DNA of 18,753 bases from a virus. Taxonomy: Duplodnaviria; Heunggongvirae; Uroviricota; Caudoviricetes. Made by a program: the position numbers and the translations under genes. The stretch is taken from the IMG/VR virus record IMGVR_UViG_2698536576_000004; one strand, written 5' to 3'. This document shows positions 1-18,753 of this stretch, in pieces. The first letter of the stretch is position 1, and each line of letters opens with the position of its first letter. The notes beneath the pieces are model-generated. The model did not search any database, was not told the DNA's origin, and saw only the letters and a program-made list of their open reading frames with translations.

Positions 1-1
1 A

Positions 2-1297
2 TTAATTTTTCATTGCTTCGTTATGGGGCATGGTTGGGGCAAACTCGCTTAACTGTGTATTTAACAAAGCTACCTGTGCATTATTGTTTTCAGACATCCA
101 TTTTCCGTATACCTGAAATACCATTTGCGCATCTGCATGGCCCATCTGGTTTGCTATAAATGCCGGGTTAGCACCAGCTGTCAGCGACCAGCAGGCATAA
201 GTATGTCTCGACTGATATGATTTTCGATGGCGGAGTCCGGCACGTTTTATCGCTGCGTCCCACATCTGCCTTATTGAGTCAACGGTAAAATGGTCACCAT
301 AATTTTTTACTCTCGCTGATACTTCAGGTTGAAAAACAAAGGTGCATTTTTGTTTTTCTGTTCTGCCATACTCTCTGAGGTGAACATCAATGATATGCTC
401 TTTGCTCAGTCTCGTTAATGTCATCTGACTCCGGAGAGCGTCGATTGCTGGCTTAATAAGATGAATGACCCGATTGGTTCCCGCCTGTGTTTTTGGTACC
501 GTGAAACGGTCTTTTGCTAAATTTCTCCTGATCATCATTGTTCCATTTTTCAGATCTATGTCCTCCCATCCAAGTGCACACAGCTCACCAGGGCGAACGC
601 CAGTATAAACAGAAACACACCATAAATTTTTTGCTTGCTGATTTCTGCACGCATCGATAAGACGGATAAATTCCTCCCGCGAAAGAGGATCCGGAATGGT
701 TCTTGATTCCTTTAATGGCGAGATCCCCTTAAACGGATTATCTGCCAGGTAACCGTTATCAACACCAAACTGGAACACGGCGTTAAGATTTGTCATGTAA
801 TTATTTACAGTTACAGCCGATCTCCCTGGTTGTGTAACAATATAGTTACTTTTGGGGATCTGGTATCCAGTCAGTAGCTCTTTACGAACCTCCAGTAATT
901 TTTCTTTATTAATCGATGAGGCAAGATTTTTTTCACCGATTATGCTTAGGATATTTTTGATGACGGCACGGTATGTGTTGAGTGATGTTTTGGCGACTTC
1001 AGTTTCTTTCAGTGCCAGAAATTTTTCAGCCAGTTCTTTTATGGTTAAATCTTGTCGGGCCTCACCAAATTTTTCCAGATTGCGTGAGGAGGGAAACTGT
1101 TTTGCATAGTCGAAAACACCAGTTTTTATTGCGTAACAAACAGAGGAGCGTAGTTCACCTGCAACGCGCCTGTTTTTTGCTGTGTCAGGAACCCCCAGAT
1201 TTTCCCTGACTCTTACGCCTTTATAAACAAACCAGATACGTAATTTCCCTCCATGGTTTTCCACGCCTGTCGGATATTTCATTTCAACTTCTCTCAT
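2..1297 (-). CDS. int: Phage tyrosine integrase (lambdoid IntR/IntQ-like site-specific recombinase)
   Basis: 431-aa ORF. N-terminal 'YPTGVENHGGKLRIWFVYKGVRVRENLG' and C-terminal catalytic region 'RHTYACWSLTAGANPAFIANQMGHADAQMVFQVYGKW' (R..H..Y tyrosine-recombinase signature) resemble the Rac/Qin-type integrase as I remember it. Stop codon at 2-4, so attP/attL lies just outside the window. Confidence 0.9.
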   Translation of the reverse strand: MREVEMKYPTGVENHGGKLRIWFVYKGVRVRENLGVPDTAKNRRVAGELRSSVCYAIKTGVFDYAKQFPSSRNLEKFGEARQDLTIKELAEKFLALKETEVAKTSLNTYRAVIKNILSIIGEKNLASSINKEKLLEVRKELLTGYQIPKSNYIVTQPGRSAVTVNNYMTNLNAVFQFGVDNGYLADNPFKGISPLKESRTIPDPLSREEFIRLIDACRNQQAKNLWCVSVYTGVRPGELCALGWEDIDLKNGTMMIRRNLAKDRFTVPKTQAGTNRVIHLIKPAIDALRSQMTLTRLSKEHIIDVHLREYGRTEKQKCTFVFQPEVSARVKNYGDHFTVDSIRQMWDAAIKRAGLRHRKSYQSRHTYACWSLTAGANPAFIANQMGHADAQMVFQVYGKWMSENNNAQVALLNTQLSEFAPTMPHNEAMKN

Positions 1298-1316
1298 TAG
1301 TTAGTGTGGCTTTTAG

Positions 1317-1568
1317 TCAAGTAAGATGACGTCTTGGTCTCGCTGATGCCTGGCGCTCAATCCAGCGATCAATTTCTTCCAGGTTGTAAAAGCATGGACT
1401 GTTATCCCATGGCATACCGTCATGAGCGACATGCTTATATTCCCTTCCTTCCATAAACGATTTTTCCCGGGCCTTTTTTAACGTACCTTTTTTTATTCCT
1501 TTCAGCGCAATTAACTGCTCTTCGGATACCCATTTGCCGGGAGAGACAATCATGATTACTTCGCTCAT
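1317..1568 (-). CDS. xis: Excisionase-like protein (DUF1233-type Xis)
   Basis: 83-aa ORF directly upstream of int on the same strand, the canonical xis position. Small basic protein. Exact start uncertain (alternative Met at residue 6). Confidence 0.65.
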   Translation of the reverse strand: MSEVIMIVSPGKWVSEEQLIALKGIKKGTLKKAREKSFMEGREYKHVAHDGMPWDNSPCFYNLEEIDRWIERQASARPRRHLT

Positions 1569-1640
1569 CGATTTCTTTATCTCTTACATCAGACGAGCGC
1601 CGGTTGCAGAATACCAGTCACAACCGGCGACAGTTGAACA

Positions 1641-4112: not shown

Positions 4113-4205
4113 TTTGTTTTAACCTCATGACAGATTTAAGGATGAACAAATCCCTGCCATTGCTGGCATATAAGAATGAAACCGGATATTTATTACGGAA
4201 CTGTT

Positions 4206-4397
4206 TTAAAGACCTGCCGGGATTTCGATATTATCCTGGTGAATAACTTTATCGACCGGGTAACAGTTACCGGGAATTTTCTGTTCGGTTGCTGCAGTCA
4301 TACACTCCTGCATTGTCCTGTGAACACTGACTGCAATATCAACTGGCTCTCCGGAAACAAGAAAAACTGTCAGAACAAGCGCAAATGCTGAATTCAT
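4206..4397 (-). CDS. ydfD: YdfD-like small protein with N-terminal hydrophobic/signal-like segment (Qin lysis-associated protein family)
   Basis: 63-aa product starting 'MNSAFALVLTVFLVSGEPV...'. SD AAGGA 8 nt upstream of ATG (4395-4397). ATGA overlap with the dicB stop suggests translational coupling. Length and position match K-12 ydfD as recalled. Confidence 0.7.
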   Translation of the reverse strand: MNSAFALVLTVFLVSGEPVDIAVSVHRTMQECMTAATEQKIPGNCYPVDKVIHQDNIEIPAGL

Positions 4398-4582
4398 TGT
4401 GCACATCCTTTTGGCATCAGACGTAAACGAGCCAGCATTGAAACAATGCATATTTTATTTAATAGCTCCCGTTCTTGTTTTCTCTTGTTAATGGCATCTT
4501 CAGTAAATACAGGGTTACTGATAGAGACACCAATTTCAAAACAACCTTCAGACGTATTAACGTTTGGTAATAACGTTTTCAT
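4394..4582 (-). CDS. dicB: DicB cell-division inhibitor (MinC-activating), 62 aa
   Basis: 'MKTLLPNVNTSEGCFEIGV...MPKGCAQ', 62 aa, matches my recollection of DicB in length and sequence. SD GAGGA 8 nt upstream of ATG at 4580-4582. Lies ~170 bp downstream of DicF, as in Qin. Confidence 0.8.
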   Translation of the reverse strand: MKTLLPNVNTSEGCFEIGVSISNPVFTEDAINKRKQERELLNKICIVSMLARLRLMPKGCAQ

Positions 4583-4750
4583 TATCGCGTCCTCAACAAT
4601 GAATTTTGTGATGCAGTGCCTGGTGCCTCCAGGTGACGTTAACCAGTTAACAATTAACGCCGGATACAGAGAATCCACCCATAACACTGTTTTTGGTTTT
4701 AACTGTTCCGCGTGCGCTTAGCCGCATTCACCGCATCACAAAATTCACTT

Positions 4751-4809
4751 TAAAAACGGCGGCAGAGCAGTCACGGAGTAAAACTGATACCGCCAAACGT
4801 CACCAGAAA
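4751..4809 (-). ncRNA. dicF: DicF small RNA (ftsZ-targeting sRNA of the dicB operon) with intrinsic terminator hairpin
   Basis: Minus strand reads 5'-TTTCTGGTGACGTTTGGCGGTATCAGTTTTACTCCGTGACTGCTCTGCCGCCGTTTTT-3', essentially identical to the DicF sequence as I remember it, including the GGCGG...GCCGCC stem and U-run. Ends approximate to +/-3 nt. Confidence 0.85.
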
Positions 4810-5085
4810 ATTGATAACAGAGGGCGTTGCAGCGGGGTTGTCACTTAAGCGTATGGTCAACCTGACAACTCGGTGTCCTCAACGGGGAAGGAATAACCCC
4901 GCCATACTTACCGCCGCGCCATTTCGCGGTTTGCCACAACCGGAAGCGCACGGTCGAATTAAATTTAACGACACCGTACAGTGAGACGAACTTCGCCGTG
5001 CGCTTTCGTGTTGTGTGCCTGCTTTTAACCACGTCAGGCGAGGTGGTATCCTTCTTATCCCGAATAACCAAGAAGGAAATCTATA

Positions 5086-5285
5086 TGACTAAAGAAGAAT
5101 TTGTCTCTTATATTTTTGATAAAACGGTTGAAATGTATGCCGCTACTTACGGGTCCTGTAATCCTCTGAATAAACCAGAGGGGAAAGATGATTTCGACAA
5201 AATTTACCGCTTCTTGGAGGACCGCTATATCAAAAGGTTAGAGGACGCAGGGATCAAATCCCCAGTGAAGTCACCATTGTCCTGA
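5086..5285 (+). CDS. Hypothetical 66-aa protein, antisense-oriented within the leftward early operon
   Basis: ATG at 5086 preceded by AAGGAA with ~7-nt spacing. Product 'MTKEEFVSYIFDKTVEMYAATYG...' has globular-like composition. Overlaps the 3' end of the minus-strand ydfB/C-region ORF by ~30 bp. No homolog recognised. Confidence 0.3.
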
Positions 5286-5631
5286 GAACTTGCAGGACGT
5301 CATGATCGTAACTTCCATCCAAACCGCGACGGCAAATTGCTTCTCGTATTACCGGAAGCAGTTCGCTGGAAATCTCGGTGCATATTTCACCTGCTAATAC
5401 GCCTGGCTCAAGTGAGAATATTGGTGAACTTACGGTCTTGGTCTCGACAGTTTCAGAGTCAGTGCCAACATTATAAAGCTCAACGAAAGCGGTCTTGATT
5501 TTCCGGGCCAGATCTTTTGCTGGCTCGCTTGCAATATCTTTCCCGATTTCTCGCAGCACAGAATGCAATGTATGAGCTGCTGTTTTCTGTACATCAGACG
5601 GTAAATCTTTAAATTCCATCGTCAGCCTCAT
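5254..5631 (-). CDS. Hypothetical early-operon protein (occupies the ydfB/ydfC position of Qin)
   Basis: 125-aa ORF. The ATG at 5629-5631 overlaps the upstream gene stop (TGATG). A second ATG at 5617-5619 has GAGG 9 nt upstream. Same strand and operon as dicA/ydfA/dicB. Confidence 0.55.
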   Translation of the reverse strand: MRLTMEFKDLPSDVQKTAAHTLHSVLREIGKDIASEPAKDLARKIKTAFVELYNVGTDSETVETKTVSSPIFSLEPGVLAGEICTEISSELLPVIREAICRRGLDGSYDHDVLQVLRTMVTSLGI

Positions 5632-5783
5632 CAGTCAGTGTTTCTGGCTAACCAGCAACGCGCGCCAGATTCGGTTTTAAACGTTTTGCTTTTGGTATAT
5701 GTCATCGCGGTGAACGTACCGTCCTGGTTGGGGAACACGCCACATACCAGAGATTCGCTGTTGCCAAGATCGATAGTATCCAT
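5631..5783 (-). CDS. ydfA: YdfA-like small protein (50 aa)
   Basis: 'MDTIDLGNSESLVCGVFPNQDGTFTAMTYTKSKTFKTESGARCWLARNTD'. GAGG 6 nt upstream of ATG at 5781-5783. Size and position (first gene after the operator downstream of dicA) match ydfA. Confidence 0.7.
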   Translation of the reverse strand: MDTIDLGNSESLVCGVFPNQDGTFTAMTYTKSKTFKTESGARCWLARNTD

Positions 5784-5896
5784 GCTGACCTCATTTCCCC
5801 TTAACGCCGGGGTAGCGGAACTGTTTGCTGAGAACACCGTGCGGTGTGTTGATGGAGGTAATTTAGTTTTCTCATTATTTTTCGTCAAGGTTTTTT

Positions 5897-5918
5897 GATG
5901 AGAAAACTCAAGTATTGG
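5897..5918. promoter_or_regulatory. Putative DicA operator at the early-left (dicB operon) promoter
   Basis: 'TGAGAAAACTCAAgTATTGG' is a near-identical copy of the motif in the dicA/dicC intergenic region (6435-6453). Core TTGAG-N4-CTCAA is palindromic. Lies between the dicA stop and the ydfA start. Confidence 0.5.
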
Positions 5919-5975
5919 CGCAAGATAAAGCCAATACATTGAAATGTAAGGCTTTAAAATTTTGTGAAGGGATGA

Positions 5976-6383
5976 TTATTGATGCTTGTTGCGTTTGCGA
6001 GCCTCTAATAGCTCGGTGAACAGGCGATTAAAATTCTCAACGCGGGCGCGGAGTTCGCTGAGTTGTGCTTGTTGCTCTGATTTAGGAAGTGCGCGATACA
6101 AACGCAGCATCTCTAACTCATCTTCCGATAAGTCTAAGGCACTATCGAGTGAAACAGGGGGAGCTGGTGTTTTGTCCTCGTCGCCAAACAGTATCCAGGT
6201 TGGTGAACATTGCAATACCTCGGCGAGGCGATGCAAATTTTGCCCGCGCGGGGCTGTATGGTCACTTTCCCATAATGAAATTGATGAGCCAGATACGCCA
6301 GCAGCTTTGCTTAAACCGTTTTGACTTAAGCCTACCTGCTTACGTCTTTCTCTAATGCGTTGACCTAAAGTTTTCTCGTTCAT
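5976..6383 (-). CDS. dicA: DicA-like HTH (XRE family) prophage repressor
   Basis: 135-aa product from ATG 6381-6383. The '...LQCSPTWILFGDEDK...' block and C-terminal '...RARVENFNRLFTELLEARKRNK' match DicA as recalled. HTH region 'GLSQNGLSKAAGVSGSSISLWE'. An upstream in-frame ATG at 6432-6434 is also possible. Confidence 0.85.
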   Translation of the reverse strand: MNEKTLGQRIRERRKQVGLSQNGLSKAAGVSGSSISLWESDHTAPRGQNLHRLAEVLQCSPTWILFGDEDKTPAPPVSLDSALDLSEDELEMLRLYRALPKSEQQAQLSELRARVENFNRLFTELLEARKRNKHQ

Positions 6384-6404
6384 ATTTAGATATCTTAATA
6401 ACCC

Positions 6405-6453
6405 TTGACTTGAGATTCCTTGAGTGATTAGCATTGAGAAAACTCAATATTGG
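6405..6453. promoter_or_regulatory. Divergent dicA/dicC control region: candidate dicC promoter plus DicA operator
   Basis: TTGACT (6405-6410), 17-bp spacer, TTAGCA (6428-6433) as a weak -10. Palindrome TTGAGAAAACTCAA at 6434-6447 plus additional TTGAG half-sites at 6409-6425. Confidence 0.45.
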
Positions 6454-6460
6454 AGGTGCG

Positions 6461-6688
6461 ATGTTTAAATCAGACGTAATTAATTTTTACGGTACGAAAG
6501 CCAAAGTAGCGAAAGCTGCTGGCGTTGACCCATCTGCTGTTTCTCAATGGCAAGAGCTGGTTCCTGAAGGTCGCGCGATGCGTCTACAGGAGGCATCTGG
6601 CGGCGAGCTTCTGTATGATCCCAAGGTTTATGACGAATATCGTAAGACGAAGCGGGCGGGGCGGTTGAACAATGAAAATCACTCCTGA
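6461..6688 (+). CDS. dicC: DicC-like Cro-type regulator (YdaS/DicC family)
   Basis: 75-aa product from ATG 6461 with GGAGG SD. C-terminal '...LVPEGRAMRLQEASGGEL.YDPKVYDEYRKTKRAGRLNNENHS' matches DicC as recalled. Divergent from dicA. Confidence 0.8.
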   Translation: MFKSDVINFYGTKAKVAKAAGVDPSAVSQWQELVPEGRAMRLQEASGGELLYDPKVYDEYRKTKRAGRLNNENHS

Positions 6689-7193
6689 ACAGGCTCGTGA
6701 GGCTCTGGATGCTTGGATATGTCGACCAGGAATGACACAGGAGCAGGCGACGATATTAATCACTGAAGCATTCTGGGCTTTGAAAGAGCGCCCGAACATC
6801 GATGTTCAGCGTGTCACAGATGAAGGTGGCGCGGTTGATCAGCGAGCGCTTGGCGTTAATCGAGTGAAGATATTCGAACGCTGGAAGGCTATCGACACCA
6901 GGGATAAGCGTGAAAAGTTCACGGCGCTAGTGCCTGCAATTATGGAGGCTATCCGGATTAATGATTTCAGGTTGTATCGTGAAATTAGTGACGGAAAAAG
7001 CATCACGTACATGATCGCCGGGTTAAACAAAGAATATGGCGATGTGGTGGAGTCCGGACTGCTTTTTGCTGATCCTGCCGTAGTGGATCGTGAAACTGAC
7101 GAACTTATAGAAAAAGCAATTGCTTTCAAACTTGCGTATCGACAGCAATACCAACAAAAAGCTGGATGGAATTATGAGCCTTCTTTTTGCTGA
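6672..7193 (+). CDS. YdaT-like protein (functional CII-position protein of Rac/CP-933P-type prophages)
   Basis: 173-aa ORF overlapping the dicC 3' end by 17 nt. Position right after the Cro-like gene and loose similarity to YdaT; assignment from memory, moderate. Confidence 0.55.
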   Translation: MKITPEQAREALDAWICRPGMTQEQATILITEAFWALKERPNIDVQRVTDEGGAVDQRALGVNRVKIFERWKAIDTRDKREKFTALVPAIMEAIRINDFRLYREISDGKSITYMIAGLNKEYGDVVESGLLFADPAVVDRETDELIEKAIAFKLAYRQQYQQKAGWNYEPSFC

Positions 7194-8139
7194 ACGCCCA
7201 CTGGTTATAAACACACAGCTTGCGATGAAGATTGGCTTAAATGAAGCCATTGTGTTGCAGCAGTTGCATTACTGGTTGAGAGATACCAATTCCGGCATGG
7301 AATGTGATGGTGTTCGCTGGATTTACAACACAACGGAACAATGGCTGGAACAGTTCCCATTCTGGTCAGAGTCAACGTTAAAGCGCGCGTTTGCAAGTCT
7401 GAAAACGCTGGGGCTTTTGCGTTGTGAAAAGCTCAATAAATCAAAGCGCGATATGACCAATTTCTACACGATTAACTATGGGAGCGAGCTTTTAGATGAT
7501 GGCAAATTGAGCGAATCCATCGGTTCAAAATGCGCCGCTCCATCAGGTCAAAATGACACGATGGAAGAGGTCAAAATGAAACGCTCCATTGGTTCAAAAC
7601 GACCCAATGTCATCGGGTCAAAATGGCCTGATGATCTTACAGAGAATACAACAGAGATTACTACAGAGAATAAAAACACTTTTCGTCCGGAAGCTTCGCA
7701 ATCGGACCCGCAGACAGCTGAACAGAATTATTTAACCCAATATCCTGACGCGGTGGTTTTCAGTGCTAACAAACGTCAGTGGGGGAATCAGGAGGATTTG
7801 GCGTGTGCGCAATGGATCTGGGCACGAATCGTGAGCCTTTACGAACAGGCCGCCAGTGATGATGGCGAGATCATGCGACCAAAAGAGCCTAACTGGACTG
7901 CCTGGGCTAATGACGTGCGCACAATGCGGATGCTGGATGGCAGAAGCCATAAACAAATTTGCGAAATGTTTGGTCGGGTTCAGCGAGATCCATTCTGGGT
8001 AAAAAACATCATGAGCCCTTCAAAGCTCCGCGAAAAATGGGATGAACTGGTCATTCGCCTGGGGCGTTCACCTGTACAGCGTTGTGTGAATCATATTTCT
8101 GAGCCGGACAGCGAAATTCCACCGGGATTCAGGGGGTAG
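7174..8139 (+). CDS. Phage replication initiator/replisome organizer with DnaT-like C-terminal domain
   Basis: N-terminal wHTH-like 'LVINTQLAMKIGLNEAIVLQQLHYWL'. C-terminus '...ISEPDSEIPPGFRG' closely resembles the E. coli DnaT (primosomal protein I) C-terminus as recalled. Contains an internal iteron array. Start at ATG 7174 chosen; the ORF is open from 7120 (TTG). Confidence 0.8.
   Translation: MSLLFAERPLVINTQLAMKIGLNEAIVLQQLHYWLRDTNSGMECDGVRWIYNTTEQWLEQFPFWSESTLKRAFASLKTLGLLRCEKLNKSKRDMTNFYTINYGSELLDDGKLSESIGSKCAAPSGQNDTMEEVKMKRSIGSKRPNVIGSKWPDDLTENTTEITTENKNTFRPEASQSDPQTAEQNYLTQYPDAVVFSANKRQWGNQEDLACAQWIWARIVSLYEQAASDDGEIMRPKEPNWTAWANDVRTMRMLDGRSHKQICEMFGRVQRDPFWVKNIMSPSKLREKWDELVIRLGRSPVQRCVNHISEPDSEIPPGFRG
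7522..7626. repeat. Iteron-like direct repeats (GG(T)TCAAAA(T)G x5, 22-26 bp period) inside the replication gene; putative ori
   Basis: Copies at 7522, 7546, 7569, 7591 and 7617, followed by an A/T-rich segment with ACAGAGA(A/T)TA x3 (7640-7675). Architecture parallels ori-lambda inside gene O. Gives the protein its repeated 'IGSK' motif. Confidence 0.6.
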
Positions 8140-8141
8140 GT

Positions 8142-8354
8142 ATGCACAGCAGTAATCAACAGGCCGCAATCCAGCATTTGCTGGAGAACGGGGAAGCCAC
8201 GTTCCGGGAGCTGGCTGATGCTCTTGGTGTGACCAACAAGAAAATTCAAAACCTGCTCCAGAACATACAGCGGTACGGGCAGCTTGTGCGGGAGGGGAAA
8301 AAATATCGGCTGGTACCGAACTGGCAGGAAAAATCTGCATTGCAAAAGCGGTAA
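8142..8354 (+). CDS. Hypothetical small protein, possible winged-helix DNA-binding fold
   Basis: 70-aa ORF. ATG at 8142 three nt after the replication-gene stop, with GGGGG/AGG SD. Sequence 'FRELADALGVTNKKIQNLLQNIQRYGQLVREGKKYRLV' looks HTH-like. Confidence 0.6.
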   Translation: MHSSNQQAAIQHLLENGEATFRELADALGVTNKKIQNLLQNIQRYGQLVREGKKYRLVPNWQEKSALQKR

Positions 8355-8603
8355 CCGAAAGGTCAACAGCGTCGAAACAGGCTGCGGCGCAGGAATGTCG
8401 CCGGAACAGCAACGGATACCAGAGACAAAAAATTTTGGGGAGTAGTCGGGGAGTCGGTAACAGAGCTTAGGTAGAGCAATTGATGCCAACTGACCTCTAA
8501 CGTTTTGTTTCATGTTGTCATTATGTTTCAATTTAGTGGAATTGTTAATAAAATGTTTTTATAATTAAAAACCAAACTACAGATAGCATGGAGCTTTTGT
8601 TCA

Positions 8604-10160
8604 ATGAATGCCTATAAATTCAGAAATAATGATGAGATTGGAAAATTAGAGGCGGAAACTGATTCTTATCTTGATGCTTGTTTTTATGAGTCCAATGTTT
8701 TTAAAGGTATTGTGAATTTTGACTCTACTGAGAAGAATCCTGATTTTACAAGAAGAATTATTGTTGGAAGAACAGGAAGCGGTAAGTCTGCGTTGCTTAA
8801 AAAAATATTAGACAAAGGAAATATTAAGCTGCATGACACAATAGAGGCAGAAAATACGATATTTGAACATATTAATAACAATGTGTTTATATCTGATTTG
8901 ATCTCGAAAGGGATAGATTTACGTGGGTTTTATAAATCGTTATGGCTGCATGTATTACTTATGAAAGTTATACCAGCCGTTTATCGTTCTTCCTATCAAA
9001 GCTTTTTTGAGGAAATTAAAGATCTTATTGGTGGTAAGAAGAAACCGTATAAACCAGAAGTTGCGAATGATTATATTGAACAATTTAAAGAAAATTTCTT
9101 CAATGATAAAGCGCTCATTGAAATAAGTAACAAGCTTGAAAGTGATTTGTCATTCAAACTCGGAAATTCCGCTGTTGGTGTGGGTGGTAAAATATCTAAT
9201 TCTGATACAGCCAAAATACAATCAGAAACTTCAAGTTATGTGAGTCGTGAACTTCTTTTTAAACAAAAAGAACTTATTAAAATACTTAAAGAGGAGTTCG
9301 CTGACTCAAACCAGGTTAGAATAGTAATCAGTATCGATGATTTAGATAAATCTTGGTTAAGCACGAGCGCCATCAGATATGACTTTATTAATGCTCTTCT
9401 TGAGGCCTTTCGAGAATTATTAGATATAAAGTCGGTTAAGGTTCTGATATCAATAAGAACAGATATTTTAATGGGAATTTATAAAAGTAGTTTAAGGCAG
9501 GATGAGAAAGATCAATCTTTAATATATTCCATATCATGGAATAAAACGGAAATAAGAGAGATTATTGATGCTAGAATTAACCATTTGGTTAAAAATAGAT
9601 ATCAATCAAATAAGTCTGTATTAATGAAGGATATTTTTAATTTTACAGTTGAAGGTATTGGAGCAGATGATTATATCCTTGACAGAACAATGCTTAGGCC
9701 TAGAGATGCAATTAATTTCGTAAATATATGTCTTTCTGAGTGCGATGGTATGGTTAACATGAATGAAAATATTGTGTTAATTGCCGAAGAGAAATTTTAT
9801 TCATCCAGAAAGAGAGCTTTGGTTACAGAATGGAAAAGCATATATCCGTTTATCGAAGAATATTTGGATGTGCTTTCCTTGATTTCATTTTCTGATTTTA
9901 CAGTCTCAAACATAGGACAAGCAGTAAAAGATGATATATCGCAGCATTTACTTGATAGATTGACTGTAGTTAAAGAGGATGATCAACATACAAAAATATT
10001 GATGAATTTTGAGGAGTTACTTAAAGTCTGGTTCGTCGTAGGCGTGGTTGGCATAAGGAAAACAGCATCTTTAATTATATATTCATCTTTTGATAAACCT
10101 AATTTGGATATTACTGATATGAAGAGAGATTTTGTAATACATCCGTTGTTTGATAGGTAA
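8604..10160 (+). CDS. P-loop NTPase, 518 aa, KAP-like Walker motifs; AT-rich cargo gene, candidate defense/abortive-infection protein
   Basis: Walker A 'GRTGSGKS' (nt 8766-8789). Walker B-like 'RIVISIDDLDK' (IDDLD at nt 9333-9347), resembling the KAP-family hhhhDDLDR. Possible Arg motif 'LRPRDAINF'. Markedly lower GC than flanking genes (by eye, not computed). Preceded by an AT-rich promoter-like region (8500-8600). Confidence 0.85.
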   Translation: MNAYKFRNNDEIGKLEAETDSYLDACFYESNVFKGIVNFDSTEKNPDFTRRIIVGRTGSGKSALLKKILDKGNIKLHDTIEAENTIFEHINNNVFISDLISKGIDLRGFYKSLWLHVLLMKVIPAVYRSSYQSFFEEIKDLIGGKKKPYKPEVANDYIEQFKENFFNDKALIEISNKLESDLSFKLGNSAVGVGGKISNSDTAKIQSETSSYVSRELLFKQKELIKILKEEFADSNQVRIVISIDDLDKSWLSTSAIRYDFINALLEAFRELLDIKSVKVLISIRTDILMGIYKSSLRQDEKDQSLIYSISWNKTEIREIIDARINHLVKNRYQSNKSVLMKDIFNFTVEGIGADDYILDRTMLRPRDAINFVNICLSECDGMVNMNENIVLIAEEKFYSSRKRALVTEWKSIYPFIEEYLDVLSLISFSDFTVSNIGQAVKDDISQHLLDRLTVVKEDDQHTKILMNFEELLKVWFVVGVVGIRKTASLIIYSSFDKPNLDITDMKRDFVIHPLFDR

Positions 10161-10390
10161 TAGCAATGTGAATATGTTGAGACTACTGGAAAAGCTATAA
10201 CTCCTTTAGTAAAGTTTCCGTGGGTGCTTGAGGCTATCTGTCTCAGGCATGAACACCAAAGGCAGATAGAGAAAAGCCCCAGTTAACATTACGCGTCCTG
10301 CAAGACGCTTAACATTAATCTGAGGCCAATTTCATGCTAGACACATGTAGGTTAGCCTCTTACGTGCCGAAAGGCAAGGAGAAGCAGGCT

Positions 10391-10546
10391 ATGAAGCAGC
10401 AAAAGGCGATGTTAATCGCCCTGATCGTCATCTGTTTAACCGTCATAGTGACGGCACTGGTAACGAGGAAAGACCTTTGCGAGGTACGAATCCGAACCGG
10501 CCAGACGGAGGTCGCTGTCTTCACAGCTTACGAACCTGAGGAGTAA
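10391..10546 (+). CDS. hokD: Hok/Gef-family membrane toxin (HokD/RelF-type)
   Basis: 'MKQQKAMLIALIVICLTVIVTALVTRKDLCEVRIRTGQTEVAVFTAYEPEE', 51 aa, matches HokD/RelF as recalled. SD AAGGAGAAG upstream. In-frame upstream extension from 10334 not annotated separately. Confidence 0.9.
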   Translation: MKQQKAMLIALIVICLTVIVTALVTRKDLCEVRIRTGQTEVAVFTAYEPEE

Positions 10547-10613
10547 GAGACCCGGCGAGGGAGAAATCCCTCGCCACCTCTGATGTGGCAGGCATCCTCA
10601 ACGCACTCGCACT

Positions 10614-10641
10614 TAACCCGCTTCGGCGGGTTTTTGTTTTT
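10614..10641 (+). terminator. Rho-independent terminator downstream of hok
   Basis: Stem CCCGC-TTCG-GCGGG (10617-10630) followed by TTTTTGTTTTT. An additional hairpin GCGAGGGA...TCCCTCGC at ~10553-10575 is typical of hok mRNA 3' structure. Confidence 0.7.
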
Positions 10642-10762
10642 ATTTTCAACGCGTTTGAAGTTCTGGACGGTGCCGGAATAGAATCAAAAATACTTAAGTA
10701 GCGCGCAGGGATAAGAGGGATGGTCCCTTAAAGGGGAGAGCTAATTATCCGGAAGGATTCTG

Positions 10763-11014
10763 ATGATGAACATCGAAGAACTGCGTAAAATTTTTTGTGA
10801 AGATGGCCTCTATGCTGTGTGCGTTGAAAATGGAAATCTTGTTAGTCATTACCGCATTATGTGTTTGCGAAAGAATGGGGCTGCGTTAATTAATTTTGTG
10901 GATGGTCGAGTGACAGACGGATTTATCTTGCGCGAAGGTGAGTTTGTCACTTCATTACAGGCACTGAAAGAGATCGGAATAAAAGCAGGCTTTTCAGCTT
11001 TTGCAGAAGAATAA
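10763..11014 (+). CDS. rem: Rem-like small prophage protein (function unknown)
   Basis: 83-aa ORF. GGAAGGA SD 5 nt upstream of ATG. Position immediately downstream of hokD matches Qin rem (83 aa); identity assigned from memory of gene order and size. Confidence 0.6.
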   Translation: MMNIEELRKIFCEDGLYAVCVENGNLVSHYRIMCLRKNGAALINFVDGRVTDGFILREGEFVTSLQALKEIGIKAGFSAFAEE

Positions 11015-11080
11015 ACTCATCTACAATCTTGCGCGGGGCTGAACTCCCGCTGAGTAACACCGTGCCACCGGAGAAAACCG

Positions 11081-11359
11081 ATGGCACGCAACGTAAAATA
11101 TTACAATTCTGATAATTCGCCCGTTCTTGCCTGCACGCACGGGCGGTATTCTCACGCATTCAAGTCTGAATGGTTCCAGCACCCTCCATGCACTGCAGAA
11201 CAGGCCGAATGGCTGATTCATTCTTACCGCAGGCGCGGGTTCGAGGTTAAGAAAGCTCTCAGTCTCGACTATCGGCACTGGATAATCTCTGTCAGGCTGC
11301 CTTATTCCGAACGCCCACCACGTGCGTCCCGCACTTTCCAGCAACGGATCTGGAGGTAA
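11081..11359 (+). CDS. Hypothetical 92-aa protein
   Basis: ATG at 11081 with GGAG 8 nt upstream. Its stop TAA (11357-11359) lies inside/next to the SD of the following GTG-start gene, suggesting translational coupling. Confidence 0.5.
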   Translation: MARNVKYYNSDNSPVLACTHGRYSHAFKSEWFQHPPCTAEQAEWLIHSYRRRGFEVKKALSLDYRHWIISVRLPYSERPPRASRTFQQRIWR

Positions 11360-11360
11360 C

Positions 11361-12410
11361 GTGCGGGTATTACTTAGACCTGTTCTGGTGCCTGAGCTTG
11401 GGCTGGTGGTCCTTAAGCCGGGCCGTGAATCCATACAGATATTTCATAATCCTCGAGTGCTGGTGGAACCGGAACCAAAAAGCATGCGTAATCTGCCATC
11501 CGGAGTCGTTCCTGCCGTTCGCCAGCCGCTGGCGGAAGACAAAACATTGCTGCCGTTTTTTAGTAACGAACGGGTGATTCGTGCTGCTGGCGGCGTTGGC
11601 GCATTGTCTGACTGGCTATTACGTCATGTTACATCCTGCCAGTGGCCTAATGGCGATTACCATCACACTGAAACAGTCATTCACCGTTATGGTACCGGCG
11701 CAATGGTGTTGTGCTGGCACTGCGACAACCAACTGCGTGACCAGACATCGGAATCACTGGAGCTGCTTGCTCAACAAAATCTGACAGCATGGGTGATTGA
11801 CGTCATCCGTCACGCAATAAGCGGTACGCAGGAGCGGGAATTATCTTTGGCTGAATTATCCTGGTGGGCGGTCTGCAATCAGGTGGTGGATGCACTACCT
11901 GAGGCTGTATCGCGTCGTTCGCTGGGATTACCAGCGGAAAAAATCTGCTCGGTGTACCGCGAAAGCGACATCGTACCGGGAGAGCAGACCGCCACCAGCA
12001 TATTGAAACAACGCACAAAAAATCTTGCACCGTTGCCTTACGCCCACCAGCAACAAAAACCACCACAGGAAAAGACGGTGGTAAGCATCAACGTTGATCC
12101 AGAGTCTCCGGAATCTTTCATGAAGCTGCCTAAACGTCGCCGCTGGGTTAAGGAGAAATACACTCGTTGGGTTAAGACACAGCCGTGTGCTTGCTGCGGT
12201 ATGCCAGCCGACGATCCGCATCATCTGATTGGTCACGGGCAGGGCGGAATGGGAACAAAAGCACATGATCTCTTTGTGTTGCCTTTGTGCAGAAAGCATC
12301 ACAACGAGCTGCATACGGATACAGTGGCATTTGAAGAGAAGTATGGCTCCCAACTGGAGCTGATATTTCGTTTTATCGATCGCGCGCTGGCAACTGGCGT
12401 ACTGGCGTAA
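11361..12410 (+). CDS. ydfU: DUF968-family prophage protein (YdfU-like) with C-terminal Cys/His-rich HNH-like motif
   Basis: 349-aa product if started at GTG 11361 (GGAGG 4 nt upstream). C-terminal 'CACCGMPADDPHHLIGHGQGGMGTKAHDLFVLPLCRKHHNELH'. Position between rem and Q as in Qin. The ORF is open from 11322. Confidence 0.7.
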   Translation: MRVLLRPVLVPELGLVVLKPGRESIQIFHNPRVLVEPEPKSMRNLPSGVVPAVRQPLAEDKTLLPFFSNERVIRAAGGVGALSDWLLRHVTSCQWPNGDYHHTETVIHRYGTGAMVLCWHCDNQLRDQTSESLELLAQQNLTAWVIDVIRHAISGTQERELSLAELSWWAVCNQVVDALPEAVSRRSLGLPAEKICSVYRESDIVPGEQTATSILKQRTKNLAPLPYAHQQQKPPQEKTVVSINVDPESPESFMKLPKRRRWVKEKYTRWVKTQPCACCGMPADDPHHLIGHGQGGMGTKAHDLFVLPLCRKHHNELHTDTVAFEEKYGSQLELIFRFIDRALATGVLA

Positions 12411-12423
12411 GTGGAGAACGAGC

Positions 12424-13176
12424 ATGAACCTTGAAGCCTTACCAAAATATTACTCCCCAAAATCTCCAAAATTGAGCGATGACGCTCCAGCGACAGGCAC
12501 CGGTTGTTTAACAATTACGGATGTAATGGCAGCGCAGGGGATGGTGCAGTCGAAAGCACCACTTGGGTTGGCCTTATTTCTGGCAAAAGTTGGTGTTCAG
12601 GACGCTCAGTTTGCGATTGAAGGCCTGCTAAATTACGCGATGGCACTGGATAACCCGACATTGAACAAATTGAGTGAAGAAATCCGGTTACAGATTATTC
12701 CTTACCTCGTGAATTTTGCCTTTGCTGATTACTCCAGGTCTGCGGCAAGTAAGGCTCGCTGTGAGCATTGTTCAGGTACGGGATTTTATAATGTATTGCG
12801 CGAAGTGGTGAAACACTACAGACGCGGGGAATCTGTAATCAAGGAAGAATGGGTGAAGGAACTATGTCAGCATTGCCATGGTAAGGGCGAAGTCAGCACA
12901 GCGTGCAGAGGGTGTAAGGGGAAAGGGATTGTTCTGGATGAAAAAAGAACCCGGTTTCATGGCGTACCGGTATATAAGATTTGTGGGCGTTGTAATGGAA
13001 ACCGGTTTAGTCGTTTACCGACCACGCTGGCACGACGTCATGTCCAGAAGCTGGTACCAGACCTGACCGATTATCAGTGGTATAAGGGGTATGCGGACGT
13101 CATTGGTAAACTGGTAACAAAGTGCTGGCAGGAAGAAGCATACGCGGAAGCGCAATTGAGGAAGGTGACGAGATAA
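12424..13176 (+). CDS. quuQ: Late-gene antitermination protein Q
   Basis: 250 aa. Cys-rich zinc-binding motifs 'CEHCSGTG', 'CQHCHGKGE', 'CRGCKGKG', 'CGRCNG'. GGAGA SD 7 nt upstream. Followed by a promoter/terminator pair typical of PR'/tR'. Confidence 0.85.
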
Positions 13177-13207
13177 ATGATTTTTGCTGAAGATGGCGAC
13201 ATGATGT

Positions 13208-13236
13208 TTGCATTTTTCAAAAAACATGGATAAGAT
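13208..13236 (+). promoter_or_regulatory. Candidate late promoter (PR'-like) downstream of Q
   Basis: TTGCAT (13208-13213), 17-bp spacer, TAAGAT (13231-13236). A qut-type Q-utilisation site would be expected to overlap. Inferred from position and hexamers only. Confidence 0.35.
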
Positions 13237-13282
13237 TTTCTCAACGATGGGCTTTGTGTATCCGACGTTTAGAAAAAAGTAG

Positions 13283-13307
13283 AAAACCCGCTTATAAGCG
13301 GGTTTTT
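13283..13307 (+). terminator. Intrinsic terminator (tR'-like), potentially bidirectional
   Basis: Perfect stem AAAACCCGCTT/AAGCGGGTTTT around a short loop, with an A-run upstream and T-run downstream. About 105 bp past the Q stop. Confidence 0.65.
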
Positions 13308-13655
13308 GTGCTTTAAATGGGGCAATAGAGATATTGAATCTCATCCCGGGATAAACATTGGCAGTTGAAGGTCCACGCGAACCATTTATCCAGCAAAATT
13401 CCACGCGTAATCCTGTGGTAATTTCTTCTGCATCTCGAAGATTGAGAGCTGAAACGTGAAGCTGGGCATCGATACGCCATCGGATGGGAATATAAGACCT
13501 TTGCTGCTTTTGTAGTCAAAGTTTTTGACAATTCCTGTCATTTTAGGGGACAGAAAAACTCCTTAATACTGATAACCGGGTGCACCATACACACGTTCCT
13601 GGAGAAAACTACTTTTTTGATAGGATTGAAGGTGGCTGGATGTCTAAAATAAACA

Positions 13656-13684
13656 TTGCTTCATATGTTCAACTATGAGTTAAT
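13656..13684 (+). promoter_or_regulatory. cspB-like promoter (TTGCTT-17-GTTAAT) preceding a ~160-nt cold-shock 5' UTR
   Basis: Same hexamer architecture as the promoter upstream of the second csp gene (16558-16586). UTR contains a GCCGAAAGGC element near the RBS, similar to the cspA-family 5' UTR. Confidence 0.45.
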
Positions 13685-13851
13685 GACTGCGTCGGTTTGA
13701 AGAACAGACGATATACGAAGTAGTTTACTAAAGCAGTTCTCATTTCAGGTGTTATTCACTTATTCCTTCTTTGAGTCTCTCCAATTAAGTACGAAGTCGT
13801 TTCTGTTATGCAAACCATTTATGCCGAAAGGCTCAAGTTAAGGAATGTAGA

Positions 13852-14067
13852 ATGTCAAATAAAATGACTGGTTTAGTAAAATGGTTTAACGCTGATAAAG
13901 GTTTCGGCTTTATTTCTCCTGTTGATGGTAGTAAAGATGTGTTTGTGCATTTTTCTGCGATTCAGAATGATAATTATCGAACCTTATTTGAAGGTCAAAA
14001 GGTTACCTTCTCTATAGAGAGTGGTGCTAAAGGTCCTGCAGCAGCAAATGTCATCATTACTGATTAA
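13852..14067 (+). CDS. cspB: Cold-shock protein (CspA family), CspB-like
   Basis: '[38 protein letters not shown]...' with RNP1 'KGFGFI' and RNP2 'VFVHF' motifs. 71 aa. AAGGA SD 7 nt upstream. Confidence 0.9.
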
Positions 14068-14348
14068 AATTCATCGCTCGTCTGTATACGATAACGAAGA
14101 AGGCTGATGCCTGAGTAGAGATACGGACAGAGTAGTGAATATTGGATCTCTTTAATAAAAAGTAAGGAGGTCCAATACATGAAACAATGGCTAGCATATT
14201 TGGCAAAATCTTAATCAGGAAAAGTATGCTAACCATTGTGGTGAAGTGCAGGTTTGCTGCATGAATAGTTTTACAGCAGAAGCTAACTGCTGGCATGGCA
14301 AAACAAAGTGCGTAAGTGGATGACTCCCACAAAAAGCACCACAATCTC

Positions 14349-14371
14349 AAACCCGCTCAGGCGGGTTTTTT
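14349..14371 (+). terminator. Rho-independent terminator
   Basis: AAACCCGC-TCAG-GCGGGTTT followed by TTTTTATT. Lies ~280 nt downstream of cspB and ~60 nt beyond the 3' end of the convergent minus-strand zinc-ribbon gene. Confidence 0.7.
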
Positions 14372-14430
14372 ATTATCTGCTTTAAATATATTATTAAAAT
14401 ATAAAAAATACTTGTTACTAATAAAATCAA

Positions 14431-14601
14431 TCAGGCTACAGCTTTAAGATTTGTCTGGAATACTTTGTTGCAATGAGGGCAGATCAAAAGGGCACCTTTT
14501 TGTACTCTTGAAAAACTGTGTTCTGACTCTTGGGTGCAGTTTGGGCAGGAACATTTAACGAGATAATTACGGCGTGATTTTGAGTCTTTACGTTCTGACA
14601 T
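14431..14601 (-). CDS. Small zinc-ribbon protein (CxxC...CxxC), hypothetical
   Basis: 56-aa product 'MSERKDSKSRRNYLVKCSCPNCTQESEHSFSRVQKGALLICPHCNKVFQTNLKAVA'. AGGA ~9 nt upstream of ATG at 14599-14601. The ORF is open from 14652. Confidence 0.5.
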   Translation of the reverse strand: MSERKDSKSRRNYLVKCSCPNCTQESEHSFSRVQKGALLICPHCNKVFQTNLKAVA

Positions 14602-14819
14602 AGGCTTTTCCTGTATAAATGGCCGTATACAGTACACTAAATATGAAAACATTTCTCGTATTATTATTTTATATATGATTTTCTTTCAAAATAATTACCC
14701 ACATTTTTAATGTGTATGTTTTTTAGCGCCGTTGAGAACAACGTGTGCTGTCAAAACTACCCCGTAGACTCCGATCTTTTCAAACATATTGCACCATCCG
14801 TGTACATCGGGGTGAGGAT

Positions 14820-15035
14820 ATGAAATCAATGGATAAGTTAACAACAGGTGTTGCCTATGGCACATCGGCGGGTAATGCTGGTTTCTGGGCATTGCAGTTA
14901 CTCGATAAAGTAACTCCGTCACAGTGGGCTGCAATCGGTGTGCTGGGTAGCCTGGTTTTTGGCCTGCTGACGTATCTGACAAATCTTTATTTCAAGATTA
15001 AAGAAGACAGGCGTAAGGCTGCGAGAGGAGAGTAA
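14820..15035 (+). CDS. essQ: Class II holin (phage 21 S-type pinholin), dual-start 'MKSM'
   Basis: '[71 protein letters not shown]' (71 aa) closely matches S21/EssD-type holins. GAGGA SD. Two in-frame starts, Met1 and Met4 (holin/antiholin). Confidence 0.9.
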
Positions 15036-15039
15036 TCCA

Positions 15040-15347
15040 ATGACTCAAGACTATGAACTGGTTGTGAAAGGAGTCCGTAATTTTGAGAATAAAGTTACGG
15101 TAACTGTAGCCTTACAGGACAAAGAACGCTTTGACGGTGAAATTTTTGACCTGGATGTCGCCATGGACCGTGTTGAAGGAGCTGCGCTGGAGTTTTATGA
15201 GGCAGCAGCCAGAAGGAGCGTCCGGCAAGTCTTCCTGGAAGTAGCAGAAAAATTGTCAGAAAAAGTTGAGTCTTATCTGCAGCATCAGTACTCCTTTAAG
15301 ATTGAAAATCCTGCCAATAAGCACGAGCGTCCTCATCATAAATATAT

Positions 15348-15351
<4 letters not shown>
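15040..15351 (+). CDS. ydfR: DUF1327-family lysis-cassette protein (YdfR-like)
   Basis: 103-aa ORF between holin and endolysin. AGGAG SD. Stop overlaps the endolysin start (ATGA). Confidence 0.7.
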
Positions 15352-16375
<1,024 letters not shown>

Positions 16376-16557
16376 GGTAATATTAAATCGGAACATTTAC
16401 ATCGCTGAATGTAAAATTTAAATAAAAAGGACTCTTCCATGAGTCAAAATTTCTGAAATCTTAAGGGTAAGATAAAAGGTCTTAATCAGAATGACGCGTT
16501 TTATTAATAAATAAAGCCATTCTTTCATTGCTGTGTTTTTCTTTACAAAAGTAATCC

Positions 16558-16586
16558 TTGCTATGGGTGGTTAATCATGCGTTAAT
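16558..16586 (+). promoter_or_regulatory. cspI-like promoter (TTGCTA-17-GTTAAT) preceding a ~145-nt 5' UTR
   Basis: Same hexamer architecture as the cspB-like promoter. A/T-rich UP-like sequence upstream (16430-16550). Confidence 0.45.
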
Positions 16587-16737
16587 GGTGTTCTGGTTTG
16601 TTACAAATTTATCTGAAGCAGTCATTGTTATAATTTTATTATTTGTACCTCTTGAGATTTCCTTGTTGGTTTTTCTCTCTGATATTTTTTTTCGGACCAT
16701 TCTGCCCAAGGGCTAATTTCTTCAAAAGGTAATAATT

Positions 16738-16950
16738 ATGTCTAACAAAATGACTGGTTTAGTGAAATGGTTTAACCCTGAAAAAGGTTTTGGTTTCATC
16801 ACGCCGAAAGATGGCAGCAAAGATGTGTTTGTCCATTTCTCAGCAATTCAGAGCAACGATTTCAAAACATTAACTGAGAATCAGGAAGTTGAATTTGGTA
16901 TTGAGAACGGACCTAAAGGTCCTGCCGCTGTTCATGTAGTGGCGCTTTGA
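16738..16950 (+). CDS. cspI: Cold-shock protein (CspA family), CspI-like
   Basis: '[70 protein letters not shown]', 70 aa, with RNP1/RNP2 motifs. AAGGT SD 7 nt upstream. Confidence 0.9.
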
Positions 16951-17155
16951 GGTAGACAATATTACAAACCATATTCACTTTAGATGCCCGTGTTGTCATG
17001 GTTCCCAGTATAGAACATCATCTTTTGATGTTTCTGACATGAATCCTTTCGGGGCAAAATGTATCTTTTGTAAATCAATGATGATTACATTTGATAATAT
17101 TTCACAATACTTAAATGCCAGCCGTCTGTCGTTGGATTTAAAAAAGTGAAAATGA

Positions 17156-17177
17156 AGGCTCCTTCGGGAGCTTTTTT
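17156..17177 (+). terminator. Rho-independent terminator
   Basis: GGCTCC-TTCG-GGAGC stem-loop followed by TTTTTT (17172-17177). Confidence 0.6.
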
Positions 17178-17296
17178 GCTTGGTGTCTATTCGATGGATA
17201 CTCACATACTACGGTAACATCATGAAAAAAATCATAGTTTTTTTTAACTCTGAACCAGCAGTGGTAATGCCAGCGATGACTGGAGTTAACACCATC

Positions 17297-17452
17297 ATGC
17301 GTGAATATCCAAATGGCGAAAAAACACACCTTACTGTAATGGCCGCAGGGTTTCCATCTCTGACCGGAGATCATAAAGTCATTTATGTAGCAGCGGATCG
17401 ACATGTAACTTCAGAAGAAATTCTGGAAGCAGCAATGAGACTCTTGAATTGA
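17297..17452 (+). CDS. Hypothetical small protein (YnfN-like position between cspI and gnsB)
   Basis: ORF open from TTG 17180, with in-frame ATGs at 17222, 17267, 17276 and 17297. The 51-aa product from 17297 was chosen on size analogy to Qin ynfN; no start has a strong SD, so the start is uncertain. Confidence 0.4.
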   Translation: MREYPNGEKTHLTVMAAGFPSLTGDHKVIYVAADRHVTSEEILEAAMRLLN

Positions 17453-17624
17453 TTTGATTCTAATGCATTGATAATAAATGATAATCATCTTTATCTGTTT
17501 GTGTGAAATTTAGACCGTCGTATGTTGATTATTGCGATGTTTCATCTTATCTTTTATACGTTTGCTCCATATAATTGACACTACTGTGTACCAGGAAAGT
17601 CATAACAGACTAAAAGAGGAAATG

Positions 17625-17798
17625 ATGAACATTGAAGAGTTAAAAACAAAAACAGAAGCAGATATTTCTGAATATATAACAAAAAAAATCATTGAGCTTA
17701 AGAAAAAGACCGGGAAAGAAGTTACCAGTATCCAGTTTACTGCACGGGAAAAAATGACTGGTCTTGAAAGCTATGATATCAAGATTGATTTAATCTAG
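17625..17798 (+). CDS. gnsB: GnsA/GnsB-family protein
   Basis: 'MNIEELKTKTEADISEYITKKIIELKKKTGKEVTSIQFTAREKMTGLESYDIKIDLI', 57 aa, matches the GnsA/GnsB family pattern. AAGAGGA SD just upstream. Confidence 0.8.
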   Translation: MNIEELKTKTEADISEYITKKIIELKKKTGKEVTSIQFTAREKMTGLESYDIKIDLI

Positions 17799-17861
17799 TC
17801 TGTTTATAGTATTAGCATCAATTTCTCATCAGATGCTATTCAACAATACAAATTACCCATA

Positions 17862-17890
17862 AACCTCGTTTTTACGGGGTTTTGTTATAT
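17862..17890 (+). terminator. Possible intrinsic terminator after gnsB
   Basis: AACCTCGT-TTTT-ACGGGGTT hairpin (one G-U pair) followed by a U-rich tract TTTGTTATATTT. Weaker than the others. Confidence 0.4.
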
Positions 17891-18093
17891 TTAAACATTA
17901 CCGAATAGGTATAAATCTCGATTGTCGATGGTATTGGTTGTGTGACAATACCTAGTCTTTCCGGTATGCCTGAAGAGAATACAAACGACAGATTATGTAA
18001 GGGAAACGCGCTGAATCTTTAACTCTTTCATGCTGAGTGATTTGACGTTATATTTTTAGCCGTAAGTGAAGAGCAAACGCATGGAGCGACAAA

Positions 18094-18321
18094 ATGCATA
18101 AAGATCAATACACTGATGCCCCCTCCCAGGAGCAGGTTCGTGTAAAAACTATGCTTAATAGCACCATTTCGATGGGTTACCCGGATGTTGTAATTGCATG
18201 TATAGAACATCAAGTGTCTCTGGAAGCATTCAGGGCAATTGAGGCCGCGTTAGTAAAGCACGATAAGAATACGAAGGATTTGGATTTGCCCCTATATTTC
18301 CAGACACCTGTTATCACTTAA
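18094..18321 (+). pseudogene. Prophage gene truncated by IS2 insertion (native coding sequence ends at ~18280; last 13 codons are IS2-derived)
   Basis: The ORF reads continuously into the IS2 terminal inverted repeat that begins at 18281, so '[13 protein letters not shown]' is encoded by IS2 end sequence. Native part '[14 protein letters not shown]...VKHDKNTKD'. Confidence 0.6.
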
Positions 18322-18753
18322 CCCATTACTGGCCTGCTGCCGCAGATATTCCCGTGGCGAGCGATAACCCAGTGCACTATGCGGATGCCATTCGTTATAA
18401 TGCTCGAACGCCTCTGCAAGGTTCTTTGCTGCCGTTAACCCGTCTGGTTTAGGCATGATACTGATGTAGTCACGCTTTATCGTTTTCACGAAGCTCTCTG
18501 CTATGCCGTTACTCTCCGGCCTCCGCACCGCCGTGTTCTTCGGTTCAAGCCCCAACATCCGGGCAAACTGCCGTGTTTCATTAGCCCGGTAGCATGAACC
18601 ATTATCCGTCAGCCACTCTACTGGAGACGCCGGAAGCTCGTTGCCGAAGCGGCGTTCCACCGCTCCCAGCATGACGTCCTGTACTGTTTCACTGTCGAAG
18701 CCGCCCGTAGTGACTGCCCAGTGCAGTGCCTCACGGTCACAGCAGTCCAGCGC
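18281..18753 (-). mobile_element. IS2 (IS3 family) insertion sequence, partial; runs off the window's right edge
   Basis: Terminal sequence 'TGGATTTGCCCCTATATTTCCAGACACCTGTTATCACTTAACC' at 18281-18323 matches the IS2 inverted-repeat end as recalled. The adjacent minus-strand ORF matches the IS2 OrfB (InsD) C-terminus. Confidence 0.9.
18292..18753 (-). CDS. insD: IS2 transposase OrfB (InsD), C-terminal part; N-terminus lies beyond the window
   Basis: '...[62 protein letters not shown]...[29 protein letters not shown]' matches the InsD C-terminus as recalled (DDE integrase core). Reading frame stays open to the window end. Confidence 0.85.

Follow-up and report, generated by a model that had tools for sequence, protein, structure and literature searches.

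The DNA analysed here, a stretch of 18,753 nucleotides from a Caudoviricetes record (IMGVR_UViG_2698536576_000004; hereafter the window), ends inside a copy of the insertion sequence IS2 that has clipped the end of a small late-region gene. Very probably (roughly 80%) this is a recent simple insertion of IS2 into a dispensable accessory gene of a lambdoid prophage, with an effect limited to that gene. In the course of events proposed here, a complete or near-complete IS2 isoform jumped, not long ago, into a full-length lambdoid prophage integrated at the rspB side of the Qin site, entering a 68-codon homologue of lambdap79/YbcW at a point 20 bp from its end. The target gene is carried on the late transcript, with the lysis cassette and the cold-shock morons cspI, ynfN and gnsB before it and the terminase genes after it. 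The element lies inverted: the transposase runs antisense to the late transcript, and the right terminal inverted repeat (IRR) adjoins the gene, the invariant YSLVVD giving way to 13 residues read from IRR. A simple insertion predicts that the left repeat (IRL) ends in ...CAGGGGGCCAGTCTA and is followed by GGATTATTCCCTGGTGGTTGACTGA... and by the gene for the terminase small subunit (TerS). The insertion is an ordinary IS2 event of a known kind in accessory prophage DNA, and a crippling of the prophage is unsupported; mildly new are only the insertion hot region in which it falls and the relatedness of the clipped gene to one reported to trigger a defence system. The coordinates of the features are collected in the table.

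Features of the window and IS2 insertion sites mapped in its relatives. Sites are given on the intact reference locus L001 (gnsB 3826-3999; the gene 4295-4501; TerS from 5054), where "-" is the orientation of the window's IS2 and "+" the opposite one.
Feature	Position	Strand or orientation	Remarks
DicF sRNA	4757-4808	-	Rfam, above gathering score
sok antitoxin RNA, beside hokD	10222-10396	+	Rfam, above gathering score
cspA-type thermoregulator leader, before cspB-like gene	13691-14083	+	Rfam, above gathering score
cspA-type thermoregulator leader, before cspI	16592-16977	+	Rfam, above gathering score
ybcW/lambdap79-family accessory gene (PHROG 657)	18094..18280	+	first 62 codons and 1 nt of 68 codons
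Chimeric 75-codon ORF	18094..18321	+	62 native and 13 IRR-read residues
GGATT, predicted left copy of the 5-bp target-site duplication	18276..18280	.	intact sequence GAAGGATT/ATTCCC (insertion point at the slash)
IS2 right terminal inverted repeat (IRR, 41 bp)	18281..18321	-	40/41 vs K-12 IS2A; outer end 18281
IS2 isoform, right-hand 473 bp	18281..18753	-	IS2 coordinates 859-1331; cut by the contig end
IS2 transposase OrfB/InsD	18292..18753	-	C-terminal 153 codons and stop; open to the window edge
IS2 site	L001 3722	-	
IS2 site	L001 3904	-	
IS2 site	L001 4130	+	
IS2 site	L001 4252	+	
IS2 site	L001 4287	+	
IS2 site	L001 4327	-	
IS2 site	L001 4361	-	
IS2 site	L001 4450	+	
IS2 site	L001 4481	-	the window
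IS2 site	L001 4484	+	
IS2 site	L001 4485	-	
IS2 site	L001 4519	-	
IS2 site	L001 4573	-	
IS2 site	L001 4595	-	
IS2 site	L001 4607	+	
IS2 site	L001 4628	-	
IS2 site	L001 4662	+	
IS2 site	L001 about 4660	-	

Read in reverse complement, the window from 18281 to its last base matches the last 473 bp of IS2A of Escherichia coli K-12 at 455 positions (96.2%), with 18 mismatches and no gaps. The motif TGGATTTGCCCCTATATTTCCAGAC... starting at 18281 is the outer end of IRR read on the opposite strand; the right-end repeat that is the hallmark of IS2, terminating in ...GGGGCAAATCCA, is thus present at a length taken from the literature (PMC3299598), its sole mismatch with IS2A falling at 18307 and its outer 25 bases being exact. 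The open frame on the minus strand shares 147 of 153 residues (96%) with the C-terminus of InsD1, matches positions 149-301 of 301 of the NCBIfam model NF006918, "IS2 transposase TnpB", with 349.5 bits, and matches the Pfam families rve (the DDE domain) and rve_3; the place of its stop codon and its orientation agree with those of IS2A (insC1/insD1; IS3 family, IS2 group). The first-pass annotation had set the start of the IS2 terminal repeat at about 18281, inside an ORF, and had read OrfB as InsD with a few substitutions, and both readings hold, the repeat starting exactly at its terminal base. The visible part amounts to 36% of the copy, with OrfA, the frameshift site and IRL lying outside the window. 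Among complete genomes the nearest relatives bear only the PGAP label "IS3 family transposase", an example being the variant of strain PSS-08-1, which differs from the window's copy at 2 of 473 positions; full 1331-bp copies of near-identical variants occur in related strains. Judged by its sequence, which stands at about 4% DNA divergence from IS2A, the element is best named an IS2 isoform.

On the other side of the junction, the window is 100% identical through base 18280 to an intact allele (WP_000548593.1, "hypothetical protein") carried by strains H7 and LH85-a, which runs on past this point as ATTCCCTGGTGGTTGACTGA; the insertion thus lies 20 bp short of the end of the gene. The native C-terminus, KD-YSLVVD-stop, has been exchanged for a tail in which KD is deprived of its hexapeptide: YSLVVD, six of 68 residues and invariant in the family, is lost, and 13 residues encoded by IRR are gained. 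This is what had been proposed for the C-terminus of the ORF, and the alignment with intact homologues bears it out, since their proteins extend six residues beyond the junction. All 21 aligned intact homologues terminate in KDYSLVVD; therefore none of them stops naturally where the IS begins, and the loss of the gene's end is real. The chimeric protein matches positions 1-65 of the PHROG 657 profile (E=1.8e-43), short of full length, and the window protein is, as read from its sequence, a disrupted member of that family. Chance similarity is excluded as an account of the IS2 end, the InsD frame, the chimeric ORF and the comparison with Qin given below.

The intact 68-residue protein matches PHROG 657, a family of unknown function, over its whole length (1-68 of 68, E=4.6e-48). 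The right end of phage lambda matches the gene at 83% at the DNA level over lambdap79 (47738-47944; 68 aa), and the two proteins are 74% identical, residues 16-68 being almost invariant; ybcW is the annotation of diverged E. coli copies of the same gene. With a dN/dS of 0.41 against lambda and changes clustered in codons 2-19, it looks like a genuine coding gene. The gene order essD-ydfR-rrrQ-rzpQ-cspI-ynfN-gnsB-[gene]-TerS-TerL is shared by H7, LH85-a and the lambdoid phage mEp460, which has the same gene at the same place. In lambda the corresponding order is Rz-bor-p78-p79-cos, with lambdap79 as the last ORF before cos and terminase; here too, the late region ends in this small ORF, which has lysis genes and morons on one side and cos/terminase on the other. 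This placement agrees with the earlier suggestion that a real late-region prophage gene had been interrupted. Lambdap79 and YbcW of the DLP12 prophage share the length of 68 aa, the position and the KDYSLVVD end, whereas the window copy is without its last six residues and has a foreign tail of 13. From a structural perspective, the AlphaFold model of the intact protein has a low confidence (pLDDT 63.6), with helices at 9-23, 29-38 and 43-56 and the tail, 57-68, modelled as coil. The helical core is thus predicted to be kept in the chimera, and this does not imply that the function of the protein is retained.

For the 68-residue protein no match was found in NCBIfam, PADLOC or PDB and none above threshold in Pfam, a hit to XFP_C (E=0.04) being discarded as noise. 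A functional hint comes from a preprint in which lambdap79 is reported as the activator of the Vulcan NADase defence system (bioRxiv 10.64898/2026.09.04.749371); the clipped gene is therefore a homologue of a recently reported trigger of bacterial NADase defence. The list of homologues also holds hundreds of near-lambda variants on ENA contigs of about 3.5 kb, and one copy turns up in an assembly of the plant Dovyalis caffra. Such entries probably stem from lambda DNA used as a control or spike-in and from contamination, not from biological diversity, and the 1,336 clusters thus overstate the breadth of the family. Upstream of the gene, right after gnsB, a terminator-like hairpin with a T-run is seen on the plus strand at 17861-17882; therefore expression of the ybcW-like gene from the late promoter would need Q antitermination, or else the gene has its own promoter.

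The recency of the event is indicated by a sister prophage. That of strain LH85-a (L010 15001-34057) matches window positions 1-18280 with no mismatches and no gaps, its own IS1 in rzpQ excepted. It is without the window's IS2 and keeps the 68-codon gene intact, with TerS starting 553 bp after the gene. Its TerS (DUF1441; PHROG 141, terminase small subunit) is followed by genes for TerL, portal, protease-capsid, tail and tail fibre, and the prophage, about 42 kb long when IS elements are left out, adjoins rspB, the Qin site. The IS1 is flanked by a 9-bp duplication whose target corresponds to window 16267-16275, and another IS2 sits in the tail-fibre gene. Since the two prophages have no point differences but an unlike IS content, the IS2 insertion is very recent. 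Moreover, the chimeric protein, looked up exactly in a large gene-position index, occurs on one contig only, CXWT01000004.1 (assembly GCA_001268905.1; 218,528 bp; 2 samples), and the window junction was absent from all 5,426 complete E. coli genomes searched. On these comparisons the insertion is recent and strain-specific. The pair, with no SNPs in 18.3 kb, illustrates that IS bombardment can precede point mutation in the change of a prophage.

The final base of CXWT01000004.1 is also the final base of the window and falls inside the IS; as the draft contig stops within a repeated element, the left IS end and the second copy of GGATT lie outside the view. The value of the insertion is mainly that of a strain marker, and of a reason for the draft contig to end where it does. 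IS2 moves by a copy-out/paste-in pathway through a minicircle (PMC3299598). Wherever both flanks could be mapped, the neighbouring IS2 copies of other genomes are 1331 bp long and bounded by exact 5-bp duplications (TATTC, TAACC, TTATT and others); therefore a simple insertion with duplication of GGATT is the default expectation, and an intact prophage would be predicted beyond it. A hybrid outward promoter formed with the -35 element of IRR was not seen at the window junction, a weak one being found in EC23HZZ201 only. Mimicry of the IS2 end by the target (GGATTATTCCCT against GGATTTGCCCCT, 9/12) was considered and rejected, given that other places in the region, free of insertions, match as well or better; the same score near a fixed point is reached by 63% of shuffles and 68% of positions, which is no better than chance.

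Alternatively, IS2 could mark the edge of an IS-mediated rearrangement (deletion, inversion or recombination), in which case the half of the prophage that encodes terminase, head and tail would be missing or elsewhere, and the prophage would be defective for that reason. The contig finishes within the IS, with nothing downstream visible in the window strain, and rearrangements of this kind are found among the relatives: PSS-08-1 has a 44-bp deletion adjacent to its IS2, in EC261 the module downstream of IS2 has been replaced, in J6 an IS2 is truncated by ISCro1 and the packaging genes are gone, and in HCP8S3_I1 the element abuts host ydfI directly, the whole packaging and structural half having been deleted. 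The last two are examples of IS2-bounded prophage decay. In sequence coordinates, the IS2 of HCP8S3_I1 occupies 2937-4267 of its locus (L026), and J6 (L013) carries two copies, at 386-1716 and from 2628 onward, of which the second is the one cut by ISCro1. Nevertheless, in at least 12 of about 17 mapped neighbours the IS2 is a plain 1331-bp insertion, bounded by exact 5-bp duplications and followed by intact TerS and TerL. A contig break within a multi-copy IS is the usual outcome of short-read assembly, and the sister prophage without a single SNP is full length, which leaves little time for a second event. A rearrangement is consequently rather unlikely; under it the order IRL, GGATTATTCCC..., TerS would not be expected, the order that a simple insertion implies.

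A further question regards the consequence of a simple insertion. IS2 is classically described as polar in operons, and this, together with the location of the gene on the late transcript upstream of essential packaging genes, could suggest a strongly polar insertion that silences the terminase and packaging genes and thereby makes the prophage cryptic. In phage lambda, a dCas12a roadblock at lambdap79, a gene called non-essential in the same study, lowers plating more than 1000-fold, down to 3e-4 (PMC10695390); therefore a true block of transcription at the position of lambdap79 would harm the phage. A simple scan of a full IS2 copy in the window's orientation detected no site resembling an intrinsic terminator on the late-transcript strand, though Rho-dependent polarity may yet act there. 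Lambda Q is moreover said to suppress polarity, a classical result reportedly due to Forbes and Herskowitz in 1982. Late transcription is carried out by RNA polymerase loaded with Q, which is termination-deficient over tens of kilobases (PMC9388147). Across 19 complete genomes, IS2 copies occupy this stretch in either orientation and the modules downstream are often intact, an indication of tolerance rather than of function. Strong polarity with a cryptic prophage as its outcome is accordingly improbable.

About 570 bp separate the insertion from the TerS start downstream of it, and TerS itself is untouched; complete genomes with IS2 a few base pairs away, in both orientations, have annotated and intact TerS and TerL. 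Lambda-vir escapers in which recombination with Qin has removed lambdap79 remain viable and form plaques (bioRxiv 10.64898/2026.09.04.749371). The first-pass annotation had supposed that the terminase and packaging genes might be disabled and the prophage thereby fixed as cryptic. Neither supposition is supported: only six of 68 residues are lost, from a gene dispensable in lambda, TerS lies at some distance, Q-modified polymerase resists termination, and relatives that carry IS2 keep TerS and TerL; as a consequence of IS2, a cryptic state is speculative and unlikely. The recent simple insertion favoured here would, instead, alter or inactivate a small dispensable protein and be polar on the packaging genes no more than partially. 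No lambda-type cosN (GGGCGGCGACCT) was found near TerS, and no IS2 insertion of the relatives falls in the 390 bp directly upstream of TerS; judging only from distance and from this insertion-free interval, cos would be untouched. Likewise, it is unlikely that the additional 1.3 kb would overshoot a lambda-like packaging limit.

The region around the gene has been hit by IS2 many times. Chimeric queries that join the gene region to an IS2 end, in either orientation, retrieved 11 and 8 complete genomes with an IS2-type element nearby, the allele being present at >=95% identity in about 584 genomes. Within about 0.9 kb (L001 3722-4662, corresponding to about 17520-18460 of the window) there are 18 or more independent IS2 sites, together with one of IS3, and further chimeric proteins in the list of homologues suggest additional ones. 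At the window's own site four independent events fall inside 9 bp (L001 4477-4485): besides the window, EC23HZZ201 has an IS2 4 bp beyond it, oriented alike (duplication TATTC), CH4804 an IS2 3 bp beyond it, oriented the other way (TTATT), and GCA_964046225.1 an IS3 whose duplication, GGA (L001 4477-4479), shares its first nucleotide with the predicted GGATT and whose cluster has 59 member sequences. The IS2 and IS3 hits in the same gene elsewhere are separate events, as they involve other sites, IS2 variants differing at 14/473 and 9/473 positions, or another IS. A short-read draft whose junction falls at a contig end inside a repeat could raise the suspicion of an assembly artefact, in which prophage reads were fused with an IS2 copy from another place. 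Such an artefact, a chimeric contig end, is extremely improbable in view of the break exactly at the terminal base of IRR, the at least 17 other genuine IS2 insertions in the same stretch of complete genomes, the three IS3-family insertions within 5 bp and the 2 samples that the index gives for the contig.

Between L001 4663 and 5458, within the detectable range, no IS2 site was found. Control searches by the same chimeric-query approach retrieved 14 genomes for rrrQ and none for TerL, with denominators that are probably larger. The GC content, 36-44% in the hit region, rises to 54% across TerS-TerL. Regional "hot targets" of IS2, in a phage P1 region and in hemB, are mentioned by way of citation in Lewis et al. 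(2012; PMC3299598). The present cluster resembles them in the many IS2 sites crowded into a short AT-rich stretch, in both orientations and without a target consensus, and thus looks like regional hot-target behaviour; it differs from them in being drawn from natural genomes, where selection and target preference are inseparable. The clustering may owe something to selection, whether this removes insertions from cos and the packaging genes or favours them in the present region. A more specific proposal, that hits are selected in lysogens because they inactivate or decouple an abortive-infection trigger (lambdap79/Vulcan) or damp late read-through into the packaging genes, is doubtful and has a small chance of being right. 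If it were true, attenuation of late read-through would be an early step of prophage domestication, and the hits would represent a natural route by which prophages or hosts silence a defence trigger.

As regards K-12, its cryptic Qin prophage also carries an IS2, the 706-bp remnant IS2E located between ydfE and intQ at the integrase end. The earlier statement that this copy lies near intQ, at a site different from the present one, was correct, and the two insertions are independent as had been stated, being at opposite ends of the late accessory region. Qin of K-12 shares with the window prophage the chromosomal site and the block essQ/ydfR/rrrQ/rzpQ/cspI/ynfN/gnsB; it differs in having ydfO/ynfO in place of the ybcW-like gene and in the loss of TerL and of the head and tail genes. 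Blocks of Qin type recognised in the window are dicB/dicF, hokD, ydfU/ydfT and essQ-rzpQ-cspI-gnsB. The rspB junction is known solely through the identical prophage of LH85-a, the window beginning at the integrase gene. Between the replication genes and hokD, at 8604-10160 on the plus strand, the window encodes a P-loop ATPase of 518 aa (PGAP "Sll1717 family"; weak KAP_NTPase match) for which no PADLOC match was obtained. In similar prophages other cargo is annotated, namely DUF4209, AIPR, RelA/SpoT-domain, KwaB-like, AAA ATPase or DUF2326 proteins, which by annotation apparently replace the ATPase, and the segment looks like a variable slot for defence genes or other cargo.
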